Shown piece by piece: positions 528-55,311 of a stretch of 55,311 nucleotides of DNA (positions are counted from its first letter, which is position 1; each line of letters begins with the position of its first letter). The DNA is taken from the IMG/VR virus record IMGVR_UViG_3300022700_000082, positions 1 through 55,311 of that record; one strand, given 5' to 3'. The position numbers and the translations under genes are program-made. The stretch is from a virus. The notes below the pieces were generated by a model. It did not search any database, was not told the origin of the DNA, and saw nothing but the letters and a program-made list of their open reading frames with translations.

Positions 528-3263
528 ATGGGACCTCAGAACCCGTTTTCCGAGTCGCTGCACGCCGAGAAATACCGCGCCCCCGGCGAGTCCTTCCGCG
601 AGGCAATGAACCGCGTCGCCTCCGCCCTGAAGGAAGACGATGAACACTACCACGCATTTCGGGAAGCTCTGCTCGATATGCGCTTCCTGCCGGGTGGCCG
701 GATCCAGGCTGCGGTGGGATCAACCCGAGACGTTACCCCCTACAACTGCTTCGTCTCCCAGACGATCCAGGACTCCTTCACCGCCGGCCGGTCCTCGATC
801 ATGGAGTGTGCCACGCTCGCGGCCGAGACGATGCGACGCGGCGGCGGGATCGGATACGACTTCTCGACCCTGCGCCCCCGTGGCGCGCTGATCCGCAAGC
901 TCCAGAGCAGCAGCTCAGGACTGGTCTCTTTTATGGAGATTTTCGACGCCATCTGCCGCTGCGTCTCCAGCTCCGGCCACCGGCGCGGCGCGCAGATGGG
1001 CGTCCTCCGCGTGGACCACCCGGACATCGAGGAATTCGTCCACGCGAAGCGCCGGCTCGGGCGGCTCGAAGGTTTCAACATATCGGTCGCCGTGACCGAC
1101 GAGTTTATGCTGGCCCTGGAAAACGACGGGCTGTTTGACCTGCAGTTTGAAGGCCAGGTCTACAAGACCATCAAAGCCCGCGCGCTCTGGGAAACCATCA
1201 TGCGGTCCTGCTGGGACTGGGCCGAGCCTGGCGTCCTCTTCATCGACACGATCAACCGGATGAACAACCTGGCCTACTGCGAGACGATCGCAGCGACGAA
1301 CCCGTCGATGCCCGCTGGGACACTGGTCCATACGGACCGCGGGGTCGTTCCCATCGAGACACTAGAAGGAGACAGTTTCCGTGTGAAGTCTCTCGACGGG
1401 ACATGGGCACAGGCAGAGTGCTTCCTCTCTGGTGAGAACGAAGAGCTGCTGGAGCTAGATTTCGGCGGAGGGCGGACCGTGCAGTCCACGCCCAAGCATC
1501 GGTGGCCTGTGCTCCTGAACGGGCGGTACGTCAAGGTAGACGCCAAGGACCTGCGGCCAGGAGACCTAATCCCAGCGCCTCGGAATGAGCGCATGGGGCA
1601 TAGTGTCCGTGACGATCTAAGCTACACGGACGGCCTCGTGGCGGGACTGGCCTTCGGCGACGGCAGCTACAACGAGCGTAGGGATGACGGTCGCGCCTAC
1701 CTACACTTCCACTTGAACCAGGAAGACGATGAGCTGCACTACATTGTGGCGACCTACTTCGGCGCGAACGTGGCGGTCCAGCCGGACGAGGCCGTGGTCC
1801 ACGTCAACAAGGACACGGACGTGCGTGGCTTCATGCAGAGGGTCGGGCTCACCTTTGGCAACAAGGACCAGCTCCCGAGCGAAGTCTGGAGGTCCAACGA
1901 CGAGTTCGTTGCCGGTTTCATCGACGGGCTATTCTCGTCGGACGGCCACGTCTCCCTGGCGAACGCGAAGATGCAGTTCACCAACAGGCGCCGCGCAGTC
2001 TGCCTAGAGCTTTCGAAACTTCTCGGCTTCCACGGAGTGCTCTCGACAGTTCGTACCAGCACATCAACCTTCGACGGTCAGGTGTTCGAGCGTACCGACC
2101 TCACGGTTCCCCACAACAGCGCGAAGCGTTTCGCAACCCTCTTCAGTCTGAGCTGCCTGCGAAAGCAGAACGCCCTGTCGGACCTGTGCGAGACTGAAAC
2201 GCGCGACAACGTGCTGACGGACCACGTGAAGCTGAAGACCGTGCGGACAGCGGGATCGGCCAAGGTATGGGACATCACGGTCTATCACGACCACCACGTC
2301 TTCCCCACGACGTGGTGCTACACCGGGAACTGCGGCGAGCAGCCGCTCCCGCCCGACGGCGCCTGCCTGCTGGGTTCGTTCAACCTGGTGAAGTACCTGC
2401 GCGACGTCGTTGTCGGCCCAGGGAAAACGGCCGTCGCGTTCGACTACGACAAGCTGGTGGCGGACATCCCCCCGATCATCCGCGCGATGGACAACGTCAT
2501 CGACTGCGCGACCTATCCCCTCTACGAGCAGGAGGCAGAAGCGAGGGCGAAGCGCCGGATGGGCCTCGGCGTGACCGGCGTCGCGAACGCCATCGAGGCG
2601 ATGGGCTTCCCCTACGGCTCGCCCGAGTTCTGTACTCGCCTGGAGGCGATCCTTCGGACGATCGCAGACCGCTGCTATCACGCCTCGGTCGACATAGCGA
2701 AGGAGAAGGGACCGTTCCCGGCCTACCGTCCCGAGTACCTGGACAGCGCCTTCCTGGCCCGGCCGGAGTTCGACAAGCTGCGGAACCGGATCGAAGTCCA
2801 CGGCATCCGGAACAGCCACCTGCTCTCGATCGCACCGACCGGGACGATCAGTGTCTGCGCGGACAACATCTCCAGCGGCATCGAGCCGGTCTTTAGTTAC
2901 GCGGCCGACCGCGTCTACATCGGGCCCAACGGACCCGAGCAGGTCGAGGTCCGGGACTACGGCGTCGAGCACCTGGGCGTCCACGGGAAGCGCGCGAAGG
3001 ACGTCACGCTCGACGAGCACCTGGCGGTCCTGAAGGTCGCCTCCGCCTGGGTCGACAGCGCCGTCTCGAAGACCACGAACCTGACCGGCGACGTGCCCTG
3101 GGAAAAGTTCAAGGACCTGTACCTGAAGGCCTGGCGCGCCGGCGTCAAGGGCTGCACCGTCTACAACGTCGACGGCAAGCGGAACGCGGTCCTAACCTCG
3201 AAGGACGAGGACGGGGCCAGCTGCCGGATCGACCCAACTACCGGGAGACAGGATTGTGACTGA
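528..3263 (+). CDS. nrdJ: class II (adenosylcobalamin-type) ribonucleotide reductase, interrupted by an intein
   Basis: 911-aa ORF with an AAGGAGA SD upstream. Extein motifs: RFLPGGRI, GGGIGYDFSTLRPRG, the active-site loop TNP/CGEQPL (split by the insert), and a C-terminal Cys pair (ASCRIDPTTGRQDC). Removing residues 260-601 leaves about 569 aa. Confidence 0.85.
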   Translation: MGPQNPFSESLHAEKYRAPGESFREAMNRVASALKEDDEHYHAFREALLDMRFLPGGRIQAAVGSTRDVTPYNCFVSQTIQDSFTAGRSSIMECATLAAETMRRGGGIGYDFSTLRPRGALIRKLQSSSSGLVSFMEIFDAICRCVSSSGHRRGAQMGVLRVDHPDIEEFVHAKRRLGRLEGFNISVAVTDEFMLALENDGLFDLQFEGQVYKTIKARALWETIMRSCWDWAEPGVLFIDTINRMNNLAYCETIAATNPSMPAGTLVHTDRGVVPIETLEGDSFRVKSLDGTWAQAECFLSGENEELLELDFGGGRTVQSTPKHRWPVLLNGRYVKVDAKDLRPGDLIPAPRNERMGHSVRDDLSYTDGLVAGLAFGDGSYNERRDDGRAYLHFHLNQEDDELHYIVATYFGANVAVQPDEAVVHVNKDTDVRGFMQRVGLTFGNKDQLPSEVWRSNDEFVAGFIDGLFSSDGHVSLANAKMQFTNRRRAVCLELSKLLGFHGVLSTVRTSTSTFDGQVFERTDLTVPHNSAKRFATLFSLSCLRKQNALSDLCETETRDNVLTDHVKLKTVRTAGSAKVWDITVYHDHHVFPTTWCYTGNCGEQPLPPDGACLLGSFNLVKYLRDVVVGPGKTAVAFDYDKLVADIPPIIRAMDNVIDCATYPLYEQEAEARAKRRMGLGVTGVANAIEAMGFPYGSPEFCTRLEAILRTIADRCYHASVDIAKEKGPFPAYRPEYLDSAFLARPEFDKLRNRIEVHGIRNSHLLSIAPTGTISVCADNISSGIEPVFSYAADRVYIGPNGPEQVEVRDYGVEHLGVHGKRAKDVTLDEHLAVLKVASAWVDSAVSKTTNLTGDVPWEKFKDLYLKAWRAGVKGCTVYNVDGKRNAVLTSKDEDGASCRIDPTTGRQDCD
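1305..2330 (+). mobile_element. intein (342 aa) with LAGLIDADG homing-endonuclease domain, inserted in nrdJ between NP and CGEQ
   Basis: Block A SMPAGTLVHTDRGVVPIETL (Ser1) and TxxH block STPKHRW. Two LAGLIDADG-like motifs: LVAGLAFGDGSY and FVAGFIDGLFSSDGHV. C-terminus is ...VWDITVYHDHHVFPTTWCYTGN, followed by the +1 Cys of NPCGE. Confidence 0.8.
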
Positions 3264-3489
3264 CCCGAATGAGCGCCAGATCGACATCGAGATGCAGCGG
3301 ATCTACATGCAGAGGATCCTGCGCGACTGCCAGGCCTCCGTCCTGATCGCAGTCGACAGAGAAGGGGGACTCGTCTCCGCCTACATGAACCTGAGCCCAA
3401 TAGAGCGACGGGGTATGATAGAACTGCTGCACGACTCGGTGCCGAGATTCTTCGCGGCAGAGGACGAAGACAATGGCGACGAAGACTAA
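3256..3489 (+). CDS. hypothetical protein (77 aa)
   Basis: GTG start overlapping the nrdJ stop by 8 nt. No motif recognised. Confidence 0.5.
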   Translation: MTDPNERQIDIEMQRIYMQRILRDCQASVLIAVDREGGLVSAYMNLSPIERRGMIELLHDSVPRFFAAEDEDNGDED

Positions 3490-4279
3490 AAAGTTCTGGA
3501 CTTTCGTTGGGGAACGTGAGACAATACGCATCCGAAAAGAACGCGGCGACGATCCTCCGTTCACTGATGACCCGAGAATGCGAGACTACTACTTCCCGAA
3601 CCTGCGACGGACCGACGACCCGGCAACCGTCTGGCTCCACGGCGCCCTGCTTCGGCGGCTCGAAAGCCCCGACCAGATCGTCCTGGCGTCGGCGGCCTTC
3701 CGGCTGACCGGCGGATCCATCGCGGCCGGGGAGGCGATGGTCCCGATGTTCACCGGCCCCGGCTTCGACGCGGACATCCTGCTGGGCACCCTGGGCCCCC
3801 TGAAGGCCCCGTTCAACGGGACCGTCCACAGGCACCTGCGTATGGCGACGCTGGCCGACCTGTCCGCCGCCGCCTGCACCTTGGGCGCCGCGAACGGCTA
3901 CTGGCCCCTCCTGAAGGGCGCGTCGCTGTATGACGCCCACAGGGCCCTCAAACGGACGCCGAAAATAGGCCCCGATCTGGCCTACGAGATCGTCTGCGAC
4001 CTGCGCCGGACGGCCGTCCTCCGGGACGCCTCCGACGTGCGCACGTGGGCCCACCCCGGCTTGTCGGCCGTCCTGGCGGCCGGGGCTATCACTGACAATG
4101 ACTGGCGCCACACACGCCAGGCAGATCGCCAGGGGACGCTGCAGCTGATGCGGTTCCTACTGGCGGAAGCCCAGATGGACTACCCAGACTGGGAACTAAG
4201 CGAGATACAGCGGTCTTTGACCCTGTACCACTTCTGGGCCCGAGAGGGCAAACCCACGAGGAGATACCGATGGAAATGA
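3473..4279 (+). CDS. alpha-glutamyl/putrescinyl-thymine pyrophosphorylase (aGPT-Pplase)-like protein (tentative)
   Basis: The N-terminal block FWTFVGERETIRIRKERGDDPPFTDDPRMRDYYFPNLRRTDDPATVWL matches my recollection of that family's conserved block (W..ER..IR..K..G...P.TdDP....Y.F.N..R..D..T.W). By-eye comparison only. Confidence 0.4.
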   Translation: MATKTKKFWTFVGERETIRIRKERGDDPPFTDDPRMRDYYFPNLRRTDDPATVWLHGALLRRLESPDQIVLASAAFRLTGGSIAAGEAMVPMFTGPGFDADILLGTLGPLKAPFNGTVHRHLRMATLADLSAAACTLGAANGYWPLLKGASLYDAHRALKRTPKIGPDLAYEIVCDLRRTAVLRDASDVRTWAHPGLSAVLAAGAITDNDWRHTRQADRQGTLQLMRFLLAEAQMDYPDWELSEIQRSLTLYHFWAREGKPTRRYRWK

Positions 4280-7033: not shown

Positions 7034-7260
7034 TGCAGAGTGACCCGACGTACGACCTGCTGACGATGTTCAAACACCAGGACGAGCAACGGCGCTGGAA
7101 GGCCGAGCGCGAGAACGCGAGCGCCCGCCTGGAACTGGCCCAGATTAGGGAGCGCCTCGCCGAGGTCCTCTCGCAGCACGAACCCGTCGCGAGCCTGAAC
7201 ATCGACCGCGACGACCTGCGGAAGGTCATCGACTACATCCGCAGCGGGAGGAAGATCTGA
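7033..7260 (+). CDS. hypothetical protein (75 aa)
   Basis: Start and stop both overlap the neighbouring genes by 1 nt (TGATG junctions). Charged and helical, with no motif. Confidence 0.55.
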   Translation: MQSDPTYDLLTMFKHQDEQRRWKAERENASARLELAQIRERLAEVLSQHEPVASLNIDRDDLRKVIDYIRSGRKI

Positions 7261-7730
7261 TGCAGAACTATAGCTGGCACCGCCGCTTCATTCAGATGTC
7301 CGGACTCGTGGCGCAATGGTCGAAGGACCCGTCGACGAAGGTCGGCGCCATCCTGGTGAACCCCGAGACCCGGACCGTCGTCGCGACCGGCTACAACGGC
7401 CTGCCCCGCGGCGTCGAGGACCGGCGCGAGCGGATGGAGGTCCGGCCGACGAAGTACCTCTGGACCGAGCACGCCGAACGGAACGCCATCCTGAACGCGG
7501 CACGGAATGGTCACTCGACTGATGGCTGCGTCCTCTACATGAACTTCGAGCCCTGCCCCTGCGCCGACTGCGCTCGGGCCGTGATCCAGGCCGGCATCAT
7601 CGAGATCGTAGGGCCCAACCGACCGTTCGTCGGCAAGGGCACGCAATGGACCGACAACCTAGTGGTCGCGATCGAGATGCTGCTGGAGGCCGGCGTCCGG
7701 ATGACCGTCGTTGAGGACCCGAAGCCATGA
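7260..7730 (+). CDS. dCMP deaminase (cytidine/deoxycytidylate deaminase zinc-binding fold)
   Basis: HAERNAI ... PCPCADCARAVIQAGI (the H-A-E and PC-x2-C zinc motifs); 156 aa. Confidence 0.85.
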   Translation: MQNYSWHRRFIQMSGLVAQWSKDPSTKVGAILVNPETRTVVATGYNGLPRGVEDRRERMEVRPTKYLWTEHAERNAILNAARNGHSTDGCVLYMNFEPCPCADCARAVIQAGIIEIVGPNRPFVGKGTQWTDNLVVAIEMLLEAGVRMTVVEDPKP

Positions 7731-8182: not shown

Positions 8183-8388
8183 AAGGTCCAGCGGGGTCGG
8201 ACCTTTCGCCCGGCAGAAATGTCTGTCGGAATTGTCGCCAAGCCCAATCGGCGCCGAGGACGGAAGATGTCAAGCAGCGTAGGCGAGAGGCCTACTGCGC
8301 GAGCTGCCATCCTCCGCTCGAAGCTCTCGCAGAGCTGCGGCAGATGTGCGACGAGATCAGGATGCACAACCAGGAGTACTGGGGATGA
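8179..8388 (+). CDS. small Cys-pair (zinc-ribbon-like) protein
   Basis: CRNC ... CASC pairs; ATGA overlaps at both ends. Confidence 0.5.
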   Translation: MKGPAGSDLSPGRNVCRNCRQAQSAPRTEDVKQRRREAYCASCHPPLEALAELRQMCDEIRMHNQEYWG

Positions 8389-10694
8389 TGACACCCGTGG
8401 AATTTTTGCAGCGAGTTCACCCCGGACGACCGTGGATCCTGACTGCCATTCAGCCTAGCCAGAAGGGCATCGAGACGCGAGCCTTCCTGCCCGGCCAGGA
8501 GGCCGAGGCGGAGAAGTGGATCGCGGAAAACAACGGTAAACGGAACTTGTATTGGAGCTGCGCCGAGGTTATCAACCCCGAGGACAAGAAGGCCAGCATC
8601 GACAACGTCGCGGCTGTCCACTGGCTCCACGTCGACATCGACGCTGGGCCCGGCGACCTGCTCGCGGAACTCGACCGGATCAAGGCCCTCGTCACGACGG
8701 ACCTGCCGACCGGCGGCATCGATCCCACGGTCGTCGTCTACTCCGGTGGAGGCTACCAGGCCTTCTGGCAGCTGGAGGAACCGATCCAGGTCCTGGGGAA
8801 CGCGGACGTCGCGGCCGAGGTCGCCCGCTACAACAAGCAGCTGGAGCTGATCTTCGGCGGGGACTCCTGCCACAATGTCGACCGGATCATGCGGCTGCCG
8901 GGGACGATGAACATTCCAAACCAGAGGAAAGTCGCGAAGGGCCGGGTCCCGGTCGAGGCGGCCGTCGTCGAGTTCCGGGAGACGACCTACCCCCTCACCG
9001 CGTTCAGCCAGGCGGCCGACGTCGGCCGGACCGGCGACGCGGACGACGTACAGATCAGTGGGAACGTCCAGCGCCTCCTGTCGGTCGACGACCTCGACCA
9101 GTGGAACGTCCACGACCGGACGAAGGTCATCGTCGTCCAGGGAAACGACCCCGACGAGCCTGACCGCCATCCGTCCCGGTCGGAGTGGCTGTTCGACTGC
9201 GTCTGCAACCTGGTCCGCGCCGAGGTCCCGGACGAGACCATCTACTCCGTCCTGACTGACCCAGGCTTCAAAATCAGCGCCTCGGTCCTGGAGACCTCGA
9301 ACCCTGACCGCTACGCGAAGAAGCAGATCAAGTCCGCGAAGGAGGTCGCGGTCTCCGAGAACCTCCACATGCTGAACGCGAAGCACGCGGTCATCGGAAA
9401 CCTCGGCGGGAAGTGCCTGGTCATCGAGGAAGTCTACGACGAGATGATGCAGCGCGACCGGCTGGTCCGCCAGACCTTCTCGGCCTTCCGGGAACGCTAC
9501 ATGAACAAGTTCGAGACCGTGGCCGTCGGCGACAAGACGAAGCAGGTCGCGATCGGTGACTGGTGGCTGCGCCACCCGAAGCGCCGCGAGTACGATCGGC
9601 TGGTGTTCCAGCCTGGCCGGGACGTCCCCGGCGCCTATAACCTCTGGCGCGGCTTCGGCTGCAACGCCCTGCCTGGGTCGAACCACGAACGCTTCCTGAA
9701 GCATCTCCACGACACGGTCTGCCAGGGCGTCGAAGAGCACTACACCTACCTGGTAGGCTGGCTCGCGCGGGCGGTCCAGCATCCCGACCAGCCTGGGCAC
9801 ACCGCGATCGTCATGCGCGGACGCCAGGGCACCGGCAAGTCCTTCTTCGCGAAGCACTTCGGTCGGCTGTTCGGGCGGCACTTCCTGCACGTCTCGAACG
9901 CCAGCCACCTGGTCGGCAACTTCAACGGGCACCTGCGGGACGCGGTCGTCGTCTTCGGCGACGAGGCCTTCTATGCCGGCGACAAGCGCCACGAGTCTGT
10001 CCTGAAGACGCTGATCACCGAGGAGTCCCTGGTCATCGAGACGAAGGGCGTCGACGCCGAGGCGAGCCCAAACTACTGCCACCTGATCCTGGCATCGAAC
10101 TCGAACTGGGTCGTCCCCGTCGGGGCTGGCGATCGTCGCTACTTCGTCCTCGACGTCGGCGAGGAGTATGCTCGGAACGTCAGGCACTTCGGCGACATCG
10201 CGCGCGACCTGGAGAACGGCGGCTACGAGAACCTGCTCCACTTCCTGATGCACTACGACCTGACCGACTACAACGTCCAGGCGATCCCCGACACCGGCGC
10301 CCGCCGCGACCAGCACGAGGAGTCGCTCGCCCCGCATGAGGAGTGGTGGCTGTCCGTCCTGGAGGACGGCCTCCTGGGCGGCGTGGTCTGGGACCCCGAC
10401 CACGCGGAGATCGTCGTCCCGAACTCCCCCGTCTGGCAGTCCTATCAAACAGCGACGGAGAACACCCCCCTGGTCAGGAAGCTTTCGAATACGAAGCTGG
10501 GCAACTTCCTGAAGCGGATGCTGCCCGGCGACTACCCGAAGCGGAAGAAGATCCGCGTCGATGGACGACCGGAGAACGCGCGCGTCTTTCCGACCCTCGA
10601 CGTCGCCCGGAAGGAATGGGATCGGATCAGCGGAGCGCCTCGTCAGTGGCCCGATGTCTCCCTCATCGACCCCGACGACGACCTGCCCTTCTGA
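8385..10694 (+). CDS. primase-polymerase / SF3 (P4-D5-VirE type) helicase fusion
   Basis: N-terminal motifs HWLHVDIDAG, VVYSGGGYQAFW, DRIMRLPGTMN. Walker A GRQGTGKS and Walker B VVVFGDEA. The ORF's first ATG is 8346, but 8385 is preferred because of its ATGA overlap with the upstream stop and an AGGAG 8 nt upstream. Confidence 0.85.
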   Translation: MMTPVEFLQRVHPGRPWILTAIQPSQKGIETRAFLPGQEAEAEKWIAENNGKRNLYWSCAEVINPEDKKASIDNVAAVHWLHVDIDAGPGDLLAELDRIKALVTTDLPTGGIDPTVVVYSGGGYQAFWQLEEPIQVLGNADVAAEVARYNKQLELIFGGDSCHNVDRIMRLPGTMNIPNQRKVAKGRVPVEAAVVEFRETTYPLTAFSQAADVGRTGDADDVQISGNVQRLLSVDDLDQWNVHDRTKVIVVQGNDPDEPDRHPSRSEWLFDCVCNLVRAEVPDETIYSVLTDPGFKISASVLETSNPDRYAKKQIKSAKEVAVSENLHMLNAKHAVIGNLGGKCLVIEEVYDEMMQRDRLVRQTFSAFRERYMNKFETVAVGDKTKQVAIGDWWLRHPKRREYDRLVFQPGRDVPGAYNLWRGFGCNALPGSNHERFLKHLHDTVCQGVEEHYTYLVGWLARAVQHPDQPGHTAIVMRGRQGTGKSFFAKHFGRLFGRHFLHVSNASHLVGNFNGHLRDAVVVFGDEAFYAGDKRHESVLKTLITEESLVIETKGVDAEASPNYCHLILASNSNWVVPVGAGDRRYFVLDVGEEYARNVRHFGDIARDLENGGYENLLHFLMHYDLTDYNVQAIPDTGARRDQHEESLAPHEEWWLSVLEDGLLGGVVWDPDHAEIVVPNSPVWQSYQTATENTPLVRKLSNTKLGNFLKRMLPGDYPKRKKIRVDGRPENARVFPTLDVARKEWDRISGAPRQWPDVSLIDPDDDLPF

Positions 10695-11079: not shown

Positions 11080-11802
11080 ATGAGAAAGTTCGACACCGGC
11101 GCGACGCGCGACACCGACGCGGGCAAGCTCGACTACGAGGGCTTCCTGTCGCCGGTAGTCCTGGAGCGCTTCGCCGAGTACATGCACAAGAACCGGATTC
11201 AGGCCGACGGGAAGCTGCGCGACTCCGACAACTGGCAGAAGGGGATCCCACGCGACGCCTTCATGAAGAGCGCCTGGCGCCACTTCATGGACTGGTGGAA
11301 GCAGCACCGACGCAGCGACGATCCCGGCCTGCTCCAGGACTCGATCTGCGCGCTGCTGTTCAACGCCTTGGGCTACCTGCACGAGGAGTTGAAGGCCATC
11401 GGCCCGCAGCCGACCGGCGGCGAGGACCGCCGGCTGGTGGGCGTGCCGGAGACCCCCGCAGACTATCCGGCCGAGGGCGTCTTCGTCGCCTACGCCCCGG
11501 AGGAGACCTACGGCCGCACGCCTGATGGCGAGGTCTTCCCGACCGCCGAGGCCCAGACCATCCCGACCGCCGAGCCCCAGCCCATCACCGTCGCGCAAGG
11601 TCGCGGCGAGGTTACCGCGACCTATGACGATGGCAACGTCCGCCGGTTCGTCGAGATCTTCGACGGCGAGGAGCTGGTGGACGACACCGCGAACCTTTAT
11701 GAGGCCGTCAGGAAGGCCGTTGTGTTGGCGCAGCTCTATGGCGTCGGCTTCGACCGCCTGGCAGACATCATGGAAAAAATCGCAGCAAAGGAGGGTCTGT
11801 AA
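11080..11802 (+). CDS. DUF5664 / dATP-dGTP diphosphohydrolase N-terminal-like domain protein
   Basis: RKFDTGATRDTDAGKLDYEGFLSPVVLERFAEYMHKNR...DSDNWQKGIPRDAFMKSAWRHFMDWW matches my memory of that family. A short PTAE(A/P)Q tandem repeat lies at nt ~11530-11590. AGGAGG SD upstream. Confidence 0.5.
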   Translation: MRKFDTGATRDTDAGKLDYEGFLSPVVLERFAEYMHKNRIQADGKLRDSDNWQKGIPRDAFMKSAWRHFMDWWKQHRRSDDPGLLQDSICALLFNALGYLHEELKAIGPQPTGGEDRRLVGVPETPADYPAEGVFVAYAPEETYGRTPDGEVFPTAEAQTIPTAEPQPITVAQGRGEVTATYDDGNVRRFVEIFDGEELVDDTANLYEAVRKAVVLAQLYGVGFDRLADIMEKIAAKEGL

Positions 11803-12303: not shown

Positions 12304-12714
12304 GTGAACCAGTATTGCCTAGAGTGTGGGTGTTGGCTCAAGCTGTACGACCACTATGAATGCAGGAACTGCCGGAACATCTACTCTCGGGAACATGTGA
12401 TCCAGGCCGATGATCCTATGGTGGCCCACGGAATCCGATGCGACACCTGCGAGGGAACCGGAACTGAGGAGCAAACGTTTGAGGAAGCGCACCCCTACGG
12501 AGACACCGTCGCCTACGAGATGCTGGTCGAGTTCGTCGACTGCGAGGAGTGCAGCGGGAAGGGCTACTTCCCGGACGAGAACAAGAAGGCCTGCGTGATC
12601 TGCGGCAGGGACATCCCCGACGGGACCGGCGTCCTGGTCAACGGCTGGCGCGTCCACGAGGACTTCGCGTGCTCGACCGACGAACCCCCGCACCTGGATG
12701 GCTGGGACGGATGA
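12304..12714 (+). CDS. DnaJ-type CxxCxGxG zinc-finger protein
   Basis: CDTCEGTG and CEECSGKG repeats plus additional CxxC pairs. GTG start preceded by GGGAGG. Confidence 0.6.
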   Translation: MNQYCLECGCWLKLYDHYECRNCRNIYSREHVIQADDPMVAHGIRCDTCEGTGTEEQTFEEAHPYGDTVAYEMLVEFVDCEECSGKGYFPDENKKACVICGRDIPDGTGVLVNGWRVHEDFACSTDEPPHLDGWDG

Positions 12715-14557: not shown

Positions 14558-14647
14558 CAGCCCACGGCGACTGGGGACGCTCCTCTACATTTGGCTCGCG
14601 ACGCGCTGGGACATGGCCACAGAGATGTGCCGGATCTCGGGGCTGTA

Positions 14648-14821
14648 GGCACACTAATTGACACATGGCAGGATGCGCGAAATTCCGCCACTGATCGTGC
14701 ATACCACCAAGCCAGAAGGGACAACGGGGAATCCTCGGGAAGCATGCGGAGCCGTGAGGTATGGCACACGACTTGCTACTACATACATGTAAGCGCAAAC
14801 CAAACAGGAGGAACCAAGATG
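14648..14821 (+). repeat. copy A of a duplicated ~175-nt regulatory cassette (copy B at 15789..15965)
   Basis: Shared blocks: ggcacactaattgacNcatggcaggatgcgcgaaat, atcgtgcat, tggcacacNNNttgctacta, caaaccaaacNggaggNaacaagATGA. Roughly 70% identity by eye. Confidence 0.8.
14762..14777 (+). promoter_or_regulatory. sigma54 (RpoN) -24/-12 promoter
   Basis: TGGCACacgacTTGCT matches TGGCAC-N5-TTGCW with correct GG-N10-GC spacing. Intergenic, about 40 nt upstream of an SD (CAGGAGGA) and the ATG at 14819. Confidence 0.7.
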
Positions 14822-14935
14822 ACACGCAAGCAGACCCTCAGCCTCATCACCGCCGCCACAGCAGCCGCCATCGCGATGCCCTTGGTGATCAAGCTGGTCG
14901 GCCTGCTGACCGCCCTGAACACCCTGGCCAACTAA
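14819..14935 (+). CDS. 38-aa hydrophobic (membrane) peptide
   Basis: MTRKQTLSLITAATAAAIAMPLVIKLVGLLTALNTLAN. Strong SD. First ORF after the sigma54 promoter. Confidence 0.5.
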   Translation: MTRKQTLSLITAATAAAIAMPLVIKLVGLLTALNTLAN

Positions 14936-15147: not shown

Positions 15148-15494
15148 GGCCAATCTCCCAGATCCGCCGCGACACAGACAACATGAAGAAAGAAGGTAGT
15201 AAGATGGGAATTGGAAAGTATTGCATCGTCCGCACGTATTGTGCTGGAGTGTTCGCTGGCGAGCTTATCAGCCGAAATGGAAAGGAGGGCGTGGTCGTCA
15301 ACGCCCGTCGGTTGTGGTTCTGGTCCGGTGCCGCGACGTTGAGCGAGCTTGCCCTGCGCGGCGTGGGGCGCCCCGAGAAATGCAAGTTCCCCGACGCGGT
15401 ACCCGAAGTCCTGCTGACGGAGATCATCGAGGTCATCGTCTGCACCGCCGATGCGCGGGCGAGTATTGAGGCGGTGCCACCATGGCGAGCATGA
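15144..15494 (+). CDS. conserved phage hypothetical protein (core starts MGIGKYCIVRTYCAGVFAGEL)
   Basis: The ATG at 15144 forms an ATGA overlap with the upstream stop. Alternative starts at 15184 or 15205. The KYCIVRT...ARRLWFWSGAATLSELA core resembles a recurrent phage family, from memory. Confidence 0.6.
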   Translation: MRPISQIRRDTDNMKKEGSKMGIGKYCIVRTYCAGVFAGELISRNGKEGVVVNARRLWFWSGAATLSELALRGVGRPEKCKFPDAVPEVLLTEIIEVIVCTADARASIEAVPPWRA

Positions 15495-15664
15495 TTGACG
15501 ACGGCGACGGCTACGGCACCGACTACGGCTCCGGCTCCGGCTCCGGCGACGGCTACGGCTACGGCTCCGGCGACGGCTCCGGCTACGGCGACGGCTACGG
15601 CTCCGGCTACGGCTCCGGCGACGGCTACGGCTCCGGCGACGGCGACGGCTCCGGCTACGGCTGA
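15482..15664 (+). CDS. (X-Gly)n low-complexity protein, X = Asp/Tyr/Ser/Thr (60 aa)
   Basis: MASMIDDGDGYGTDYGSGSGSGDGYGYGSGDGSGYGDGYGSGYGSGDGYGSGDGDGSGYG. Encoded by degenerate GGCTACGGCTCCGGCGAC tandem repeats (~15497-15661). The start overlaps the upstream gene by 13 nt. Confidence 0.45.
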   Translation: MASMIDDGDGYGTDYGSGSGSGDGYGYGSGDGSGYGDGYGSGYGSGDGYGSGDGDGSGYG

Positions 15665-15807
15665 CGAACGGGCGGGGCGGGCGTAGCGAACGGATGAACA
15701 ACCGCCAGGTGGTCGATTACTTCCTGCGCGAGGCCCGTGCCTGCGAACGGGAGCTGGAAATCCGGAAAACTGGCCGCGTGCTGACGGTGGCACACTAATT
15801 GACCCAT

Positions 15808-15850
15808 GGCAGGATGCGCGAAATCCGGCTCCCGTATCGTGCATCCTGCC
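15808..15850 (+). promoter_or_regulatory. perfect 10-bp dyad GGCAGGATGC-N23-GCATCCTGCC (candidate enhancer/UAS or RNA hairpin)
   Basis: The arms at 15808-15817 and 15841-15850 are exact reverse complements. In copy A (14667-14676 / 14699-14708), 7 of the 10 stem positions can still base-pair. Confidence 0.5.
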
Positions 15851-15859
15851 AATCCCGAA

Positions 15860-15894
15860 GGAACAATGAGGAACCCCCTGGAACAACAAGGAAC
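15860..15894 (+). promoter_or_regulatory. four GGAAC pentamers at exact 10-bp spacing, immediately upstream of the sigma54 -24 element
   Basis: GGAAC at 15860, 15870, 15880 and 15890. Copy A has degenerate GGA(C/A/G) at 14719, 14728, 14738 and 14748. The distance from the last repeat to the -24 GG is 15 nt in both copies. Confidence 0.6.
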
Positions 15895-15903
15895 CATAGG
15901 ACA

Positions 15904-15919
15904 TGGCACACCGGTTGCT
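15904..15919 (+). promoter_or_regulatory. sigma54 (RpoN) -24/-12 promoter
   Basis: TGGCACaccggTTGCT. Intergenic, about 43 nt upstream of an SD (ACGGAGG) and the ATG at 15963. Confidence 0.7.
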
Positions 15920-15962
15920 ACTATTGGGCGTACGCAGCAACAAACCAAACGGAGGCAACAAG

Positions 15963-16127
15963 ATGAAGAACCTGCTCAACGACAACAAGATCGACAACCT
16001 GCTGAACCGCATCGAGATCGCCGACGACAACGACCGCTCCTGGATGACCGACGTCGCCACCAGCGATCCATACCACAAGCCCACCGAAGACAACACCCCC
16101 AACTGGCGCATGACGCTGCACGGATAA
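15963..16127 (+). CDS. hypothetical protein (54 aa)
   Basis: Begins MKNLLNDNKIDNLLNRIEIADDNDRSW... First ORF after the second sigma54 promoter. Confidence 0.5.
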   Translation: MKNLLNDNKIDNLLNRIEIADDNDRSWMTDVATSDPYHKPTEDNTPNWRMTLHG

Positions 16128-17504: not shown

Positions 17505-18005
17505 GTGAACTCGTCCAACAGTTCGCTGATCCGCACCGCGCAAGAGATCTGGCGGCAGGACCTGCGCATGCTGCTGGACGAGGGCGGGAAAGCCATGGGC
17601 TATCGCGACCCGTTCTTCCGGCGCGTGGCGTTGCCGATGTGGCTGGCGCGGCGGGAATACCCTTCTGCTGCGCTGGACACATTATGGCGGACGATTGGCG
17701 CATGGCTGTCATGTATTGGATCAAAGGAGCGATGGATGTTGTCGAAAAGTAGTGCCGCGCATAACCGGCGGCTGTTTCTGCTGAAGCAGGTGCCGTTCTT
17801 CGGTGCCGTACTGGCCAAGGACCTGGAGCACATGGACAAGGTGGAACACCGTGTGGGCGATCTGGCTGCGCTTGTGTCGGGCGGAACCGTCCGCAGGTTG
17901 CGTCGCGCAGGGAAGATGCCCAGGTATTCGAAAACGTGGCGAGGTGCGTTTCGTGTGTGGCGTGAGCGGTATATGGATCCGCGCACGAATGAAGTAGGAC
18001 CATGA
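17505..18005 (+). CDS. hypothetical protein (166 aa, GTG start) in lower-GC cassette
   Basis: Longest sense ORF in this stretch. Codon usage is visibly less GC3-biased than in flanking genes. No motif. Confidence 0.4.
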   Translation: MNSSNSSLIRTAQEIWRQDLRMLLDEGGKAMGYRDPFFRRVALPMWLARREYPSAALDTLWRTIGAWLSCIGSKERWMLSKSSAAHNRRLFLLKQVPFFGAVLAKDLEHMDKVEHRVGDLAALVSGGTVRRLRRAGKMPRYSKTWRGAFRVWRERYMDPRTNEVGP

Positions 18006-18684
18006 ATGAGCTGGCTTTATTCGCGGGTGCTGGTGGAGGCATACTCGGCGGCCAACTGCTCGGATGGCGCACCGTCTGCGCTGTCGAAAACGATCCCTAC
18101 GCCGCAAGCGTACTTGTCGCCCGGCAGAATGACGGCGTTCTCCCGCCTTTCCCGATTTGGGATGACGTTCGCACCTTTGACGGACGACCTTGGCGCGGAA
18201 TGTTGATGTGGTTTCGGGCGGGTTCCCATGCCAAGCATTTAGTACGGCGGCTAGAGGGCGAAACACCGCGCATAATCTGTGGCCGCAGATGCTCCGCGTT
18301 ATCGGCGACGTATGCCCACAATTCGTGTTTGCCGAAAACGTCAGCGAAGACGCGATCTGTGAAGCACAAGCCGACCTTGCCTGTGCTGGATACACGGCGA
18401 TCCGTGGCATGGTCGCGGCGGGCGACGTGGGCGCAGACCATCCTCGGGAAAGATGGTGGTTGGCTGCCGACTCCGACCACAAAGGCAAATTGGGCGGCAG
18501 CCTCGATGCAGAAGTGGCCAAGCTCAAGGCGTGCGACAAAGGTGTTTGGTCACCCTACGCCGGAGGTCCACGAATATCTGATGGGGTGGCCCCCAGGGTG
18601 GACAGATTTAAAGCCGTTGGGAACGGGCAAATACCAGTCGTGGCTGCAATCACATGGCAAGTCCTGTCCGGAAGAAAGGATTGA
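18002..18684 (+). pseudogene. C5 cytosine DNA methyltransferase split across two reading frames (frameshift near 18185-18200)
   Basis: The frame starting at 18002 carries motif I LFAGAGGG and motif II CAVENDPYA. The frame from 18190 carries motif IV GGFPCQAFS, motif VI FAENV, motif VIII HPRERWWL and motif X AVGNGQIPVV. The junction reads ...VRTFDGRPW / ARNVDVVSGGFPCQ. Confidence 0.75.
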
Positions 18685-18687
18685 CCG

Positions 18688-19050
18688 ATGAACAAGTGCC
18701 CGGTCTGTAAAGGGCGTGGGGGTTCTCCTGGGATTGCATGCGGCGAGGACAGATGCAAGGACGACAGAGGGCTCTGGAGCAACGCGAACCGGATCCTCTG
18801 CGAACAATACCACGGCCCGCCGCCGGTCGACCCCGACGGGAAGCGGATCGTCTGCCGCCACCTGAACCACGACCTGCGGCTCGAGAACCTGGCCTGGGGG
18901 ACGGACGACTACCGCGAGATGATCCGCCTGCGGGAGACCGGGATGACCTGCCAGGTCGGCTGCTCCGTCGGATACGTCTCCGACATCTGCCGAGGCGGGG
19001 CCGCCGCCTGGGAGACCGAGGACCTGTGGGAGGAGGTCGGCGCCGACTGA
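18688..19050 (+). CDS. HNH-like endonuclease with C-terminal HTH-like segment (tentative)
   Basis: CPVC...C...C N-terminus. IVCRHLNHDLRLENLAWGTDDY resembles the H-N-(N) core of phage HNH enzymes. Starts 4 nt after the methylase stop. Confidence 0.4.
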   Translation: MNKCPVCKGRGGSPGIACGEDRCKDDRGLWSNANRILCEQYHGPPPVDPDGKRIVCRHLNHDLRLENLAWGTDDYREMIRLRETGMTCQVGCSVGYVSDICRGGAAAWETEDLWEEVGAD

Positions 19051-19150
19051 ACAGGGCCCTTCAAAGTCCGGGGCTGCCTGTGAAATTTTGGCCAGGGGAC
19101 CACCACCCCCCATCCCGGCGGGGGGGAGCCGCCCCCCTCGTCCTGGGCGC

Positions 19151-19971
19151 ATCGTTCCTCGCGTTCTGCCCGATCGCGTCGTCCCTCGTTGTTCCCCATC
19201 GTTCCTCGGCCGAGAGCATGTGACGGAGCGAACTCACAATCATTGCCGATCGTTCCCCGTAGGCCCACAGCTCGAGCGATCCTTCCCCATTGTTCCGCAT
19301 ATCACTCGCATCGTTCCTCAGCCCGAGCGATCCGTCCCCTATCGTTTCCAATCGCGAGCGTTGAGGGTCGATCGTTCCTCAGCCTGAGCGATCGTTCCCC
19401 ATAAGGCCCAATCGCGAGCGATCATTCCCCCTGGCGCCCAATCAGGGCACAAGGCAGTGCATGCTGGGCGCGTCGTTCCCGATAAGGGCCCAGCGCTCGG
19501 CGTCGTTCCCCAAAGCGCCCCGTTGTGTAAAAATGGCCACACTCCCCGTTGGTCCTTGTCGTTCCTGCCCTTTTGGCAGGTCGCAGCGTTCCCCATTGTT
19601 CCTCCCCGGATTCAGGCGCGCGCGCGCGAGCCAGAATATGTGGGCGGGGATTAGCTTGTTCCACCTTAGCCCGATTCGTTCCGGCCCTGTTCCGACCTTG
19701 GTGTCACGGTAGGAACGCCCTCAATCAGCCCAAAGCGCGCGCCCCAAGGCAATCTTTCTTCTTTTGTTCCTACCGTTCCTACCAAGAGAAGAAGTTAAGT
19801 AAAGAATGGAAAAACGCGCCCCCTACGCCCTGCGTCGTTCTGCCACGCAACTAGGGCCCCAAGGTCGGAACGGTAGGAACACTTGCATAAGTCGGTTCCG
19901 GATATACACTTGCGCCGTTCTGACCCTTGTTCCGACCTAGTCTAGGTAGGAACGCCCGAAAAGCGGGAACC
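19151..19971. repeat. non-coding array of 25 GTTCC/GGAAC pentamers (consensus ~TCGTTCC[CT]C), helically phased; candidate iteron/ori, pac or regulator-binding region
   Basis: Top-strand GTTCC at 19154, 19191, 19201, 19252, 19292, 19313, 19374, 19394, 19475, 19505, 19561, 19588, 19598, 19658, 19678, 19689, 19766, 19775, 19895 and 19929. GGAAC at 19712, 19867, 19876, 19949 and 19966. There are also about 8 one-mismatch variants. No credible ORF in the region. Confidence 0.85.
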
Positions 19972-20030
19972 CTCGGCGCCTCGGCATCGTATAAGATCCC
20001 GCTGCCCGTCACCACGGAAGGGCGCTCGGA

Positions 20031-20513
20031 ATGGTCGACAACCTGCCTATCAAGTTCGACGCCGACGCGCGCCATCGGTTCCTGCAGTACTACGCTTTGA
20101 CGGGCCAGATCCAGAAGTCGGCTCGTGAGATCGGCATCTCACCTGCGACGGTCCGGCGGGTCGCGAAGCAGGACCCGGCCTTCAAGGAGGCGATGGAGGA
20201 GGCGAAGCAGGACTTCGTCGAGGCGATGGAGCGTGAGGTTGTTCGGCGCGCGGTCATGGGCGTCGACGAGCCGGTCTTCCAGCAGGGCGAGCAGGTCGGC
20301 GAGGTCCGGAAATATTCCGACGCCCTGCTGATGATGCTGATGAAGAAGCTGGATCCGACCTACAAGGAGAAGCACCAGATCGACGTCTCGCTGGGTGGCG
20401 GGATCCTTGCGGTCCCTGCCCAGGAGGCGGAGGATGAGTGGGAGAAGCGGAACTCAATCGACGCGGACTACGCGGTCGTAGATGAGGAGGAGCCCGATGC
20501 AGAAAACGATTGA
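20031..20513 (+). CDS. terS: terminase small subunit (HTH type)
   Basis: HTH SAREIGISPATVRRVAKQDPAFKEAMEEAK followed by ...RKYSDALLMMLMKKLDPTYKEK, the typical small-terminase pattern. Acidic C-terminus. Lies upstream of terL. Confidence 0.8.
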   Translation: MVDNLPIKFDADARHRFLQYYALTGQIQKSAREIGISPATVRRVAKQDPAFKEAMEEAKQDFVEAMEREVVRRAVMGVDEPVFQQGEQVGEVRKYSDALLMMLMKKLDPTYKEKHQIDVSLGGGILAVPAQEAEDEWEKRNSIDADYAVVDEEEPDAEND

Positions 20514-32727: not shown

Positions 32728-34269
32728 ATGGCCACGATGACCAAAATTGACAGCAACGCAACCGGACTGCGCTACTGCGAAGAGGACTCCTACAAGGTCG
32801 TCTCCGGTGACGAGGTCTGGAAGCCGCTGGAGCCCAACAGCTACAGCGACTTCGGCGGGTCGGTCACGACCGTCGCCCGCAACCCCATCAACCCCTCGCG
32901 CCAGCGGAAGAAGGGCGTGGTCACCGACCTCGACGCTTCCGGCGGGTTCGAGATGGACATCACCCAGAGCAATCTGCAGGACCTGCTGCAGGGCTTCTTT
33001 TTCGCCGACCTGCGGACGAAGGTGGAGTTCGGCGGCGCGGGTGAGATCACCGGCGTCGTCACCTCGACGGACGACTTCGAGGCTGCCTCCGGGCTCGACG
33101 CCTTCGCGGCTGGCGACCTGGTCCACGCGGCCGGATTCTCCGACGCAGCGAACAACGGCCTGCACGTCGTCTCGGCGGCTGCGGCCGGTGCCCTGACGGT
33201 CACATCGAACCTGGTCGACGAGACCCCGGCGACCACCGCCACCCTGGTGAAGGTCGGCGTCCAGGCCTCGGCCGACGACATCGACGTGGACGTCTCCGGC
33301 TCCCGGCCCGCCCTGACCTCGACCACACTGGACTTCACCGACCTAGGGCTCGTCCCCGGAGAGTGGATCTACATCGGCGGTGACTCGCCCCTGCTGGGCT
33401 TCTTGAACGCGGCGAACAACGGCTTCGCCCGCGTCTTCTCGATCGCGGCCAACACCCTGACCCTGGACAAGACCGAGGACACGATGGTCGCCGAGACCAG
33501 TTCCGGCAGCCGGACGGTCCAGATCTTCATCGGCCGAGCCTTGAAGAACGAGTCGGACCCCTCCGACATCGTCCGCCGGACCTACCAGCTGGAGCGCCAG
33601 CTGGGCGCTCCAGATGACAGCTCCCCGAGCGACATCCAGGCCGAGTACATCATCGGCTGTGTCCCCTCGGAGTTCGAGTTCCAGGTCCCGACGGCCGACA
33701 AGGCGATGGCGAACCTGAGCTTCGTCGGCGCGACGAACGAGACCATCGACGGCCCGACCAGCCTGAAGGGCGGAACCCGTCCTGACCTGGTCGAAGCCGA
33801 CGCCTTCAACACGTCGAGCGACGTTCCCCGGATCAAGATGGCGGTCTACGACAGCGCGGACGCGGCGCCCACGGCCCTGTTCGCCTACGTCACCGAGCTG
33901 ACCCTCTCGATTAACAACAACGTCTCGCCGAACAAGGCGATCGGCGTCCTCGGGGCCTTCGAGGTCACCGCCGGGACGTTCGAGGTCGGCGGCAACGTCA
34001 CGGCCTACTTCGCCGACGTCGCAGTCATCGACGCTGTCAAGGACAACAGCGACGTTACCTTGGACTTCCACTTGGTGAAGGAGAACGCGGGCGTCACGAT
34101 CGACGTCCCCCTCATCTCGCTGGGCGATGGTCGTCCGAACGTTGAGCAGGACCAGGCGATCACCCTTCCGCTGGAGACCAACGCGGCCACCGGCGCGAAG
34201 ATCGACTCGGCCCTCGACCACACGCTGCTGATGGTGTTCTGGGACTACCTCCCCGACGCCGCCGAGTAG
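32728..34269 (+). CDS. major tail (tube) protein, large form
   Basis: 513 aa with a good SD. It is the only large gene between the connectors and chaperones, and no sheath gene is present, indicating a non-contractile tail. Confidence 0.6.
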   Translation: MATMTKIDSNATGLRYCEEDSYKVVSGDEVWKPLEPNSYSDFGGSVTTVARNPINPSRQRKKGVVTDLDASGGFEMDITQSNLQDLLQGFFFADLRTKVEFGGAGEITGVVTSTDDFEAASGLDAFAAGDLVHAAGFSDAANNGLHVVSAAAAGALTVTSNLVDETPATTATLVKVGVQASADDIDVDVSGSRPALTSTTLDFTDLGLVPGEWIYIGGDSPLLGFLNAANNGFARVFSIAANTLTLDKTEDTMVAETSSGSRTVQIFIGRALKNESDPSDIVRRTYQLERQLGAPDDSSPSDIQAEYIIGCVPSEFEFQVPTADKAMANLSFVGATNETIDGPTSLKGGTRPDLVEADAFNTSSDVPRIKMAVYDSADAAPTALFAYVTELTLSINNNVSPNKAIGVLGAFEVTAGTFEVGGNVTAYFADVAVIDAVKDNSDVTLDFHLVKENAGVTIDVPLISLGDGRPNVEQDQAITLPLETNAATGAKIDSALDHTLLMVFWDYLPDAAE

Positions 34270-55274: not shown

Positions 55275-55311
55275 TCATCCTCTTTGCCCTCGCCACCAGG
55301 ATCCAACCTCG
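55213..55311. repeat. terminal overlap, identical to 1..99
   Basis: Direct comparison of the two ends of the window. Confidence 0.95.

Follow-up and report, generated by a model that had tools for sequence, protein, structure and literature searches.

What could a gene-free stretch of almost 1 kb, packed with short repeats, be doing directly upstream of the gene for the small terminase subunit (terS) of a phage? This question is raised by IMG/VR virus record IMGVR_UViG_3300022700_000082; here the window is the whole 55,311-nt stretch, and all coordinates are positions in it. The phage is a distant relative of the YuA/M6, Ab18/PaMx11, Bordetella FP1 and PhiJL001 siphophages (Mesyanzhinovviridae), with about 56% identity in the large terminase subunit (TerL) and about 46% in TerS. 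An earlier reading of the letters alone (the sequence-only reading) had noticed an array of GTTCC/GGAAC pentamers at 19151-19971 and had offered four functions for it: a replication origin with iterons, a TerS recognition (pac) region, a centromere-like site or a master-regulator array. Our analysis indicates that the gap upstream of terS is probably the replication origin region of the phage, of the iteron type and of the superfamily 3 (SF3) primase-helicase class. As part of the same probable reading, the iterons would be bound by the winged-helix C-terminus of the phage primase-helicase, the origin would be extended by an expanded arm of weak sites, and the terS promoter would lie at its right edge. 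We infer both the identity of the binder and the start of replication at the array.

Among the four options, the iteron origin is favored because the same 9-mer, in the same layout, directly follows the stop codon of a VapE-like helicase gene in 13 of 13 reference loci. The reading is built on a motif that is unique in the genome, on the layout of its copies, on the AT-rich spacer between them, on an association with the helicase that holds whatever lies downstream, and on the experimental precedent of the staphylococcal pathogenicity islands (SaPIs). Of the remaining options, pac and the master regulator stay as rivals, and the centromere drew nothing in its favor from this comparison.

A two-part array in the largest gene-free gap of the window

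The gap spans 980 bp (19051-20030) in a gene map based on third-codon-position GC (GC3) and is by far the largest of the window, in agreement with the earlier remark that about 1 kb without genes is unusual here. It is bounded by a small HNH-like open reading frame (ORF; 18688-19050) and by terS (20031-20513), whose start codon lies 60 bp beyond the array end. Within 19151-19971 (821 bp), GTTCC is found 20 times on the + strand and five times on the - strand, which reproduces the counts given before, and the rest of the window predicts 2.65 pentamers for this length (Poisson p about 2e-16). The shuffled-sequence control that had been suggested as a check points the same way: 2000 dinucleotide-preserving shuffles gave a mean of 2.9 and a maximum of 11 pentamers versus the 25 real ones, and no other 821-bp segment of the genome comes close to this density. 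A structured-RNA gene, which the sequence-only reading had named as a competing explanation, was not detected, as the tRNA and Rfam scans of the array region gave no match and its folding was not much better than that of shuffled sequences on either strand (z -2.25 for the + strand, z -0.63 for the - strand). In addition, a DNA similarity search of the array region against 50,697 phage records returned no match, generic sigma70 promoter and terminator scans of 18900-20200 returned nothing, and DnaA boxes and IHF sites were sought in the array and not found.

The GTTCC sites of the region form two classes and not the one uniform, phased set that had been described. Judged from its sequence, the array is real, non-random and composed of two parts, both predicted to bind protein, and the site analysis upholds the proposal that a sequence-specific DNA-binding protein would assemble a nucleoprotein complex here.

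The right part (19658-19970; Table 1) is built on a 9-mer, GTTCC[G/T]ACC, that had been overlooked. It has eight exact copies, all at 19689-19953 and none elsewhere in the 55 kb. The iterons run both ways: each flank of a central region has two or more, and those of one flank are opposed in direction to those of the other (the doublets at 19766-19783 on the + strand and 19863-19880 on the - strand), and the site map bears out the reported switch of orientation near 19700, the inverted pairs and the direct doublet. The left iteron group is separated from the tandem doublet by 49 bp, and the last GGAAC of the array is found at 19966. The first 32 bp of the spacer between the doublets (19784-19815) contain 28% G+C versus 63% in the genome, which ties for the lowest 32-mer in the 55 kb.

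The left arm consists of class A sites in a single orientation, with the consensus [G/C]ATCGTTCC[C/T]C. The extended consensus proposed earlier for the whole array, TCGTTCCYC, describes this part well (seven exact copies, all within 19152-19511 and none elsewhere in the 55 kb) and does not describe the right part, with its longer 9-bp motif; six one-mismatch pentamers share the sequence context of the TCGTTCCYC sites. Helical phasing, likewise claimed for the array as a whole, was found in this sub-array, where the best period is 10.15 bp, with R=0.69 (p about 0.02) for the 13 exact sites and R=0.74 (p about 0.0004) after addition of the six degenerate sites, the latter figure being softer because these sites were picked after inspection. 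When all 20 or 25 sites were pooled, the periodicity was not significant (p 0.07-0.11). Class A sites often occur in twos or threes at 10-bp intervals, with a larger-scale organization into units of about 30 and 61 bp. The higher-order unit of about 60 bp mentioned earlier reappears as 30-nt units that are spaced 61 bp apart and 90% identical, and Tandem Repeats Finder also gives a 30-bp period.

Some minor features of base usage were also noted. Apart from the array and the sigma54 element described below, the highest pentamer density is that of five GGAAC in 100 bp (12365-12464) within the coding region 12304-12714, which encodes a Cys-rich small protein; this cluster is probably a coding coincidence. 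GATC is found 493 times in the whole window, about 2.6 times the expectation from base composition, and CGATCG and GCGATC are enriched in the left arm (four copies each versus about one expected).

The same 9-mer follows VapE-like helicase genes in diverse viral contigs

An exact-pattern scan of IMG/VR with the tandem doublet (GTTCCKACCGTTCCKACC) identified 26 loci, many of them with multi-copy arrays in both orientations. The ORFs around the arrays were clustered in 15 loci, a set that covers each of the 13 whose multi-copy arrays run in both orientations. A single protein family was common to more than three of the 15 loci, a VapE-like SF3 primase-helicase encoded in the 13 multi-copy loci (PF05272, E 1e-55 to 1e-81 in the five scanned). 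The N-terminal primase modules of these 13 proteins vary (Toprim, Prim-Pol or PriCT-2). In each of the 13 reference viral contigs, the array starts at or just after the stop codon of the VapE-like gene. Seen from the helicase, these loci begin with direct copies spaced about 10-11 bp apart and a single inverted copy, then have a tandem doublet or triplet with a 9-bp period, a spacer, and finally inverted tandem copies, and the array of the window has the same order. The spacer between doublets, 79 bp long in the window, measured 58-86 bp in 10 of the 11 other loci measured (145 bp in the outlier). In all 11 reference loci the 30-bp stretch of the spacer with the lowest GC was below the locus average, least so in the high-GC ones.

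The likeness between the window and the VapE-type loci (L087-L109) therefore resides in the 9-mer, identical in 13 contigs, and in the layout. This layout is also found after the helicase/primase gene, with lineage-specific 9-mers, in APSE-1 (GTAACAACC), YeP4 (AGACAACCT) and Caulobacter phage Jess A (GTAACCA). The difference is that the VapE-type arrays lie at the stop codon of a PF05272 helicase gene, whereas the window has a DUF5906/RepB-type helicase and an array detached from it. The small ORFs downstream of the reference arrays are homologous neither to each other nor to the TerS of the window, a terS-like protein being common to only three, and no terminase gene was found downstream of the array in APSE-1 (about 2.4 kb examined) or in L106 (0.8 kb). 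A scan of a genome collection for the doublet gave no information on the host, as most matches were single; a few loci, among them L216 and L246, had several copies in tandem. Our literature search found no experimental test of the arrays at VapE loci. Taken at face value, these data would describe a widespread 9-mer origin module, GTTCC[G/T]ACC, attached to VapE primase-helicases in diverse viral contigs.

One of these contigs, L099, has a perfect DnaA box (TTATCCACA) at 3455-3463, past the helicase stop codon and ahead of the first iteron in its GTTCCTACC array; this contig was binned to a Polyangiaceae metagenome-assembled genome.

The phage primase-helicase as candidate initiator

The binding protein, which the sequence-only reading had left unidentified, has a concrete candidate in the phage's own primase-helicase and its predicted winged-helix C-terminus (Table 1). 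This protein matches DUF5906 (E 3e-22) and RepB_primase, with a weak match to VapE. Its C-terminal module is also found in about 2300 homologues and was modelled with a 35-homologue alignment as a strand-helix-helix-beta-hairpin fold (pLDDT 89.7); a single-sequence AlphaFold model of the C-terminus was set aside for its poor quality. A Foldseek search with the alignment-based model gave no significant PDB match: the top-ranked entries were archaeal Orc1/Cdc6 origin-binding winged helices and other winged-helix DNA binders, at E 0.09 or worse, and the winged helix of P4 alpha (1KA8) was not among the matches listed. The C-terminus also has a weak Pfam match (E 0.21) to the RFX winged-helix family, the same family noted for pRN1 ORF904. 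When a profile of the 13 VapE C-termini was run against the window ORFs (hmmsearch), the primase-helicase C-terminus ranked best, at E 0.18, and hhalign placed the recognition helix and wing in register (P 0.001, probability 22%). The wing, RKKIRVDG.P, is like that of GTTCC-type VapE proteins such as the one in L105 (RKKLRIDGAP) and unlike that of YuA, a resemblance that is suggestive only.

Table 1. Array, initiator and promoter features of the window.
Feature	Position	Strand	Description
Left arm (class A)	19152..19604	+	13 exact and 6 one-mismatch core-only sites, single orientation
Class A exact sites	19154, 19191, 19201, 19252, 19292, 19313, 19374, 19394, 19475, 19505, 19561, 19588, 19598	+
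Class A one-mismatch sites	19163, 19181, 19282, 19334, 19344, 19424	+
Left iteron group (whole)	19658..19716		Same direct-then-one-inverted group after the helicase stop in displayed loci (e.g., L087, L089, L099)
Left iteron group, partial direct copies	19658; 19678		GTTCCACCT; GTTCCGGCC
Left iteron group, palindromic pair	19689-19697; 19708-19716		GTTCCGACC direct; 10-bp spacer; GGTAGGAAC inverted
Tandem doublet of full 9-bp iteron	19766..19783	+	GTTCCTACC GTTCCTACC
Spacer between convergent doublets	19784..19862		79 bp; candidate DNA-unwinding element
Inverted tandem doublet	19863..19880	-	GGTCGGAAC GGTAGGAAC; 95% complementary to 19765-19783
Right iteron group	19895..19953		Partial copy at 19895; degenerate copy at 19917 (GTTCTGACC); then second palindromic pair
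Second palindromic pair	19929-19937; 19945-19953		GTTCCGACC; 7-bp spacer; GGTAGGAAC
Candidate terS promoter	19966..19995	+	GGAAC, 19 bp, TATAAG; 35 bp upstream of terS start codon
terS, small terminase subunit	20031..20513	+	phrog_4044, E 8e-44; directly downstream of array
Primase-helicase, candidate initiator	8346..10694	+	RepB-type primase and DUF5906/VapE-like SF3 helicase
Predicted C-terminal winged-helix-like module	about 10410-10589		Within primase-helicase
Related element	15860..15919	+	Four GGAAC boxes at exact 10-bp spacing, then perfect sigma54 -24/-12 promoter

Analogous gaps upstream of terS in related phages

The first and last parts of the window share the same 37 bases (62-98 and 55275-55311), so the record represents a whole genome of about 55.2 kb that is circular or circularly permuted; the Mesyanzhinovviridae are described as circularly permuted, with headful packaging (PMC11946847). 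We searched the literature on YuA/M6-like siphophages and found no description of a replication origin or of the terS-upstream gap. Such gaps measure 927 bp in Ab18, 659 bp in YuA, 655 bp in FP1 and 365 bp in PhiJL001, and each contains a lineage-specific motif of about 9 bp (ACTTGAGTT, TTACTTAGG, ATCAGGTCN) in tandem direct and inverted sets around A+T-rich sequence. The TerL-related contigs L062, L152 and L011 show the same pattern, which brings to seven the genomes and contigs with analogous arrays upstream of terS or TerL. These comparisons suggest that the terS-upstream gap is conserved in Mesyanzhinovviridae and that it holds arrays with lineage-specific motifs. YuA (NC_010116) has two paralogous iteron-like arrays, at 427-700 and 33040-33230 (L192 and L193), each of which overlaps a sigma70 promoter mapped by promoter trap (PMC10914365). 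The TTACTT core of these arrays is also contained in five annotated YuA "phage-specific promoter" repeats (CTTTACTTCTTCGG).

Searches for closer relatives via TerS in IMG/VR and metagenomes gave none. Via TerL, the only close relative was a 4.8-kb contig without an array, and via the helicase we found two contigs, of 14.6 kb and 16.8 kb, neither of which extends as far as the terS region. It should be noted that some matches of the crude 8-mer screen applied to 42 TerL-related loci were artefacts, such as coding pentapeptide repeats in L123.

Two further observations were made in these gaps and contigs. In the window, CTGGGCGC is present twice and CCTTGGGGC twice on the bottom strand (19143-19150, 19464-19471, 19739-19750 and 19852-19862). 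They resemble C(T/C)TGGGC, a motif recurrent in the terS-upstream gaps of YuA, FP1 and Ab18 regardless of iteron sequence, which may represent an additional site used throughout the family, by TerS or a host factor. L186, a distant TerL relative, has intergenic arrays of GAC-containing pentamers with a 5/10-bp period (GACGCGAC, GACGGGAC and others) at 2280-2620 and 3200-3440, each followed by a T-run.

Sigma54 promoter units that share the GGAAC core

Outside the gap, the GGAAC core is also found upstream of a sigma54 promoter, as had been reported: four boxes (15860-15894) at exact 10-bp spacing are followed by the consensus TGGCACACCGGTTGCT at 15904-15919. The doublet GGAACAATGAGGAAC of this element is identical at 14 of 15 positions to the reverse complement of 19588-19602. 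This element belongs to one of two paralogous promoter units of about 170 bp (14645-14830 and 15786-15965). The 14645-14830 unit contains an exact sigma54 consensus, TGGCACACGACTTGCT, at 14762 and degenerate boxes (GGGAC, GGAAT, GGAAG and GGAGC) in 10-bp phase, the degenerate paralogue of the element lying at 14710-14777. Further upstream, the sigma54 units have a near-sigma54 motif (TGGCACACTAATTGAC) and an inverted repeat (TGGCAGGATGC...GCATCCTGCCA). In both units the boxes lie unusually near the -24 element for an enhancer.

Two transcriptional readings of the pentamers were considered and dropped. GGAAC as the -35 element of an extracytoplasmic function (ECF) sigma factor was abandoned, as class A sites have no consistent -10 partner. 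The gap as a sigma54 enhancer array was likewise rejected: TGGCAC-N5-TTGCW with up to three mismatches had no match on the + strand of 19000-20030 and two chance-level matches only on the - strand, such a promoter being present downstream of the boxes in the separate 15860-15919 element. Between the two sigma54 units, an ORF at 15482-15664 encodes a 60-residue Gly/Tyr/Asp/Ser repeat peptide (GYGSGDGYG...).

A probable iteron origin compared with known systems

In the mechanism that we propose, the winged-helix C-terminal domains of the primase-helicase (8346-10694) would bind the iterons, and two hexamers, loaded face to face on either side of the A+T-rich stretch, would melt it; priming by the N-terminal primase and extension by the phage family-A DNA polymerase would follow. 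We read the left arm as an expansion made up of about 19 weaker, core-only iterons, in the same orientation as the short direct-iteron group that follows the helicase gene in the reference loci, with phasing of about 10 bp also in common. Its weak sites may recruit or concentrate the initiator cooperatively, shape the DNA, or titrate the initiator, by analogy with plasmid iteron control loci.

The experimental precedent is SaPI Rep, a self-loading SF3 helicase whose C-terminal winged helix recognizes 6-12 short iterons directly downstream of rep. These are divided equally between the two flanks of an AT-rich region, two or more on each flank being in opposed directions, and two hexamers probably load across that region (PMC9371898). 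The window likewise shows opposed iterons around an AT-rich stretch, with roughly 6-12 or more sites, and encodes an SF3 helicase whose C-terminus may form a winged helix. In contrast to the penta- or hexanucleotide iterons directly downstream of SaPI rep, its iteron is a 9-mer located 8.5 kb from the helicase gene and beside terS, and it has an extra 460-bp phased arm of core-only sites; binding in the window is a prediction. Primase, SF3 helicase and C-terminal winged helix are also joined in one protein in P4 alpha and in pRN1 ORF904, and the region downstream of orf904 is needed for pRN1 replication (PMC2777425). P4 alpha has a Toprim primase, whereas that of the window is RepB/prim-pol-like, and the C-terminus of the window shows no Foldseek-detected homology to the P4 winged helix. 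The type I iteron of P4, TGTTCACC, resembles TGTTCC[T/G]ACC. P4 iterons are found in both orientations, and a second iteron cluster, crr, is placed away from ori, which provides a precedent for extra iteron clusters and indicates that adjacency to the helicase is typical and not strictly required.

The best analogy for the left arm is found in plasmid iteron control loci such as P1 incA, with many same-orientation, helically phased initiator sites outside the minimal origin. Those loci control the copy number of stable plasmids via RepA-type initiators, with sites of 17-22 bp, whereas the sites of the window are core-only (5-9 bp) and a virulent phage has no obvious need for plasmid-type copy control. 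The unusual parts of the proposed origin are its extension by a long phased half-site arm and the reuse of its core at sigma54 promoters; the array is also detached from the helicase gene, and the origin class itself is known.

Several observations weigh against the origin reading. The helicase gene ends at 10694 and the array, which adjoins terS, starts 8.5 kb away at 19152, so the window lacks the main contextual hallmark of the 13 reference loci. The helicase of the window belongs to a subfamily other than VapE, and the likeness of its C-terminus to the VapE winged helix is statistically insecure. The left arm has no counterpart in the VapE reference loci displayed. No array lies upstream of terS in L005/L112, the closest relative found (TerL 82% identical), where this stretch measures only about 100 bp. 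A terminase gene is situated just beyond the array in at least five of the 13 reference loci (L092 and L099 with terS and TerL, L094 and L096 with TerL-like ORFs; the terS-like ORFs of L101 and L102 were judged by eye only), and in those loci position alone cannot separate an origin from a pac or cos site. Finally, the YuA iteron core overlaps mapped promoters and the GTTCC core is reused at a sigma54 promoter, a pattern that a transcription factor would fit equally well. Cumulative GC skew, with its minimum at 17-20 kb of the window, was given little weight because the skew of YuA shows no origin signal at its array, which makes this measure supportive in one genome and uninformative in the other.

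If the origin reading is correct, it provides a concrete origin and a candidate initiator for YuA/M6-like siphophages (Mesyanzhinovviridae). Knowledge of the origin and its specificity would aid the engineering of these phages, the reading of satellite and defence elements that hijack such origins, and the annotation of large non-coding gaps that are now left blank.

Alternative explanations

The position of the array next to terS makes packaging the natural competitor. As a pac region, its repeats would be bound by oligomeric TerS, the phased left arm would wrap around the TerS ring, and the first headful cut would be made nearby. Direct repeats on one helical face suit a rotationally symmetric ring, and terminase genes lie downstream of the array in the five or more reference loci mentioned above. 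The family packages by headful (PMC11946847), so a pac site must exist somewhere, and the overlapping ends of the window are as expected for a permuted genome. The convergent tandem sites around an AT-rich spacer, however, are the published layout of an origin (PMC9371898), and site and TerS do not co-vary: the 9-mer stays identical beside non-homologous downstream ORFs, of which only three are terS-like, while the VapE helicase is present in all 13 loci. L005 retains a clearly related terS of 160 aa and yet has no array, and the arrays of APSE-1 and L106 have no terminase gene within the downstream stretches given above. Repeated sites directly upstream of terS that assemble a nucleoprotein complex are a shared feature of the window, the lambda cosB R sites and SPP1 pacL/pacR; those of lambda and SPP1, however, are few (3-4), TerS-specific, and not known to travel with helicase genes, as the 9-mer array type does. 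We consider a pac region unlikely, weakened as it is by the non-homologous ORFs that the 9-mer accompanies and by a closest relative in which a related terS stands without an array.

A regulatory array, in which a GGAAC-binding phage transcription factor of the sigma54 and terS promoters would use the sites as operators, enhancer or sink for an early-to-late switch, is in our view quite improbable. It would account for the GGAAC boxes in 10-bp phase that abut a perfect sigma54 promoter, for their degenerate paralogue at 14710-14777, for the near-identity of the sigma54-element doublet to class A doublets, and for the GGAAC-N18/19-TATAAG upstream of terS that is kept in L005; both TTACTT-type arrays of YuA overlap promoter-trap sigma70 promoters, and their core lies within phage-specific promoter repeats that need a phage factor (PMC10914365). 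It leaves unexplained, though, why the full 9-mer array follows the VapE helicase in every one of 13 loci that are unrelated and whose downstream genes are unrelated as well. No candidate regulator was found among the proteins scanned, the array contains no sigma54 or sigma70 consensus promoter, and its 20 top-strand sites point in the direction opposite to those of the sigma54 promoter. Far less probable still is a non-coding RNA gene, for example a protein-sponge RNA with many GGAAC, even though about 19 motifs of the GGGGAACGA type, spaced by 10 to about 80 nt, would be present in a bottom-strand transcript of 19151-19610 and the top strand folds slightly better than shuffles: Rfam gave no match, folding of the bottom strand does not surpass that of shuffles, neither a promoter nor a terminator consensus was found in 18900-20200, and both the inverted, palindromic arrangement and the 10.15-bp phasing are features of the DNA level. 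We give equally little credit to a centromere-like partition site for a plasmid-like carrier state. Repeat arrays in two orientations do resemble some parS/parC sites, and pseudolysogeny has been reported for the relative Ab18 (PMC4482731), but the proteins scanned include no ParA-, ParB- or ParM-like gene product and the motif travels with the helicase gene and not with partition genes.

A combination of origin and regulation is, in our estimate, quite improbable. One GGAAC core would be read by the winged helix of the initiator at the origin iterons, at about 19 phased half-sites and at the promoter boxes (sigma54 and terS). Such a hub would store or titrate the initiator beside the packaging genes, and initiator occupancy would couple genome replication, late transcription and packaging; reuse of the TTACTT core in the phage-specific promoters of YuA would make this a general feature of the family.

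The probable terS promoter and neighboring genes

The motif GGAAC-N19-TATAAG at the right edge of the array (19966-19995) is, on sequence conservation only, probably the terS promoter: the closest relative, L005, which has no array, keeps GGAAC-N18-TATAAG at the same position upstream of terS, and the generic sigma70 scan picked up nothing at this motif. In L005 the predicted promoter lies inside a palindrome with 13-bp arms (745-785; ATACCGGAACCCT ... AGGGTTTCGGTAT) that could be an operator or a hairpin.

Directly to the left of the array, the ORF at 18688-19050 encodes a protein with an HNH_3-like motif (CRHLNHD..NLAWGT), an HTH-like C-terminus and a weak PHROG HNH match (E 0.003), which may be a homing endonuclease or an HNH partner of the terminase. 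The adjacent 18002-18691 region encodes a C-5 cytosine methylase that appears to be split by a frameshift, with the Pfam match only in the ORF at 18190-18684 and the ATG ORF 18002-18691 in another frame.

Elsewhere, the gene content of the phage includes a 5-hydroxymethyldeoxyuridine (5-hmdU) DNA kinase, a dCMP deaminase, an intein-containing ribonucleotide reductase, a family-A DNA polymerase and the RepB-primase/DUF5906 primase-helicase. A thymidine-hypermodification set (5-hmdU DNA kinase domain, dCMP deaminase and dATP/dGTP diphosphohydrolase N-domain) and the ribonucleotide reductase, which is interrupted by a LAGLIDADG intein, are encoded at 3473-4279, 7260-7730, 11080-11802 and 528-3263. 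T is probably hypermodified in the DNA of this phage, and recognition of the T-containing GTTCC sites could be affected by it.

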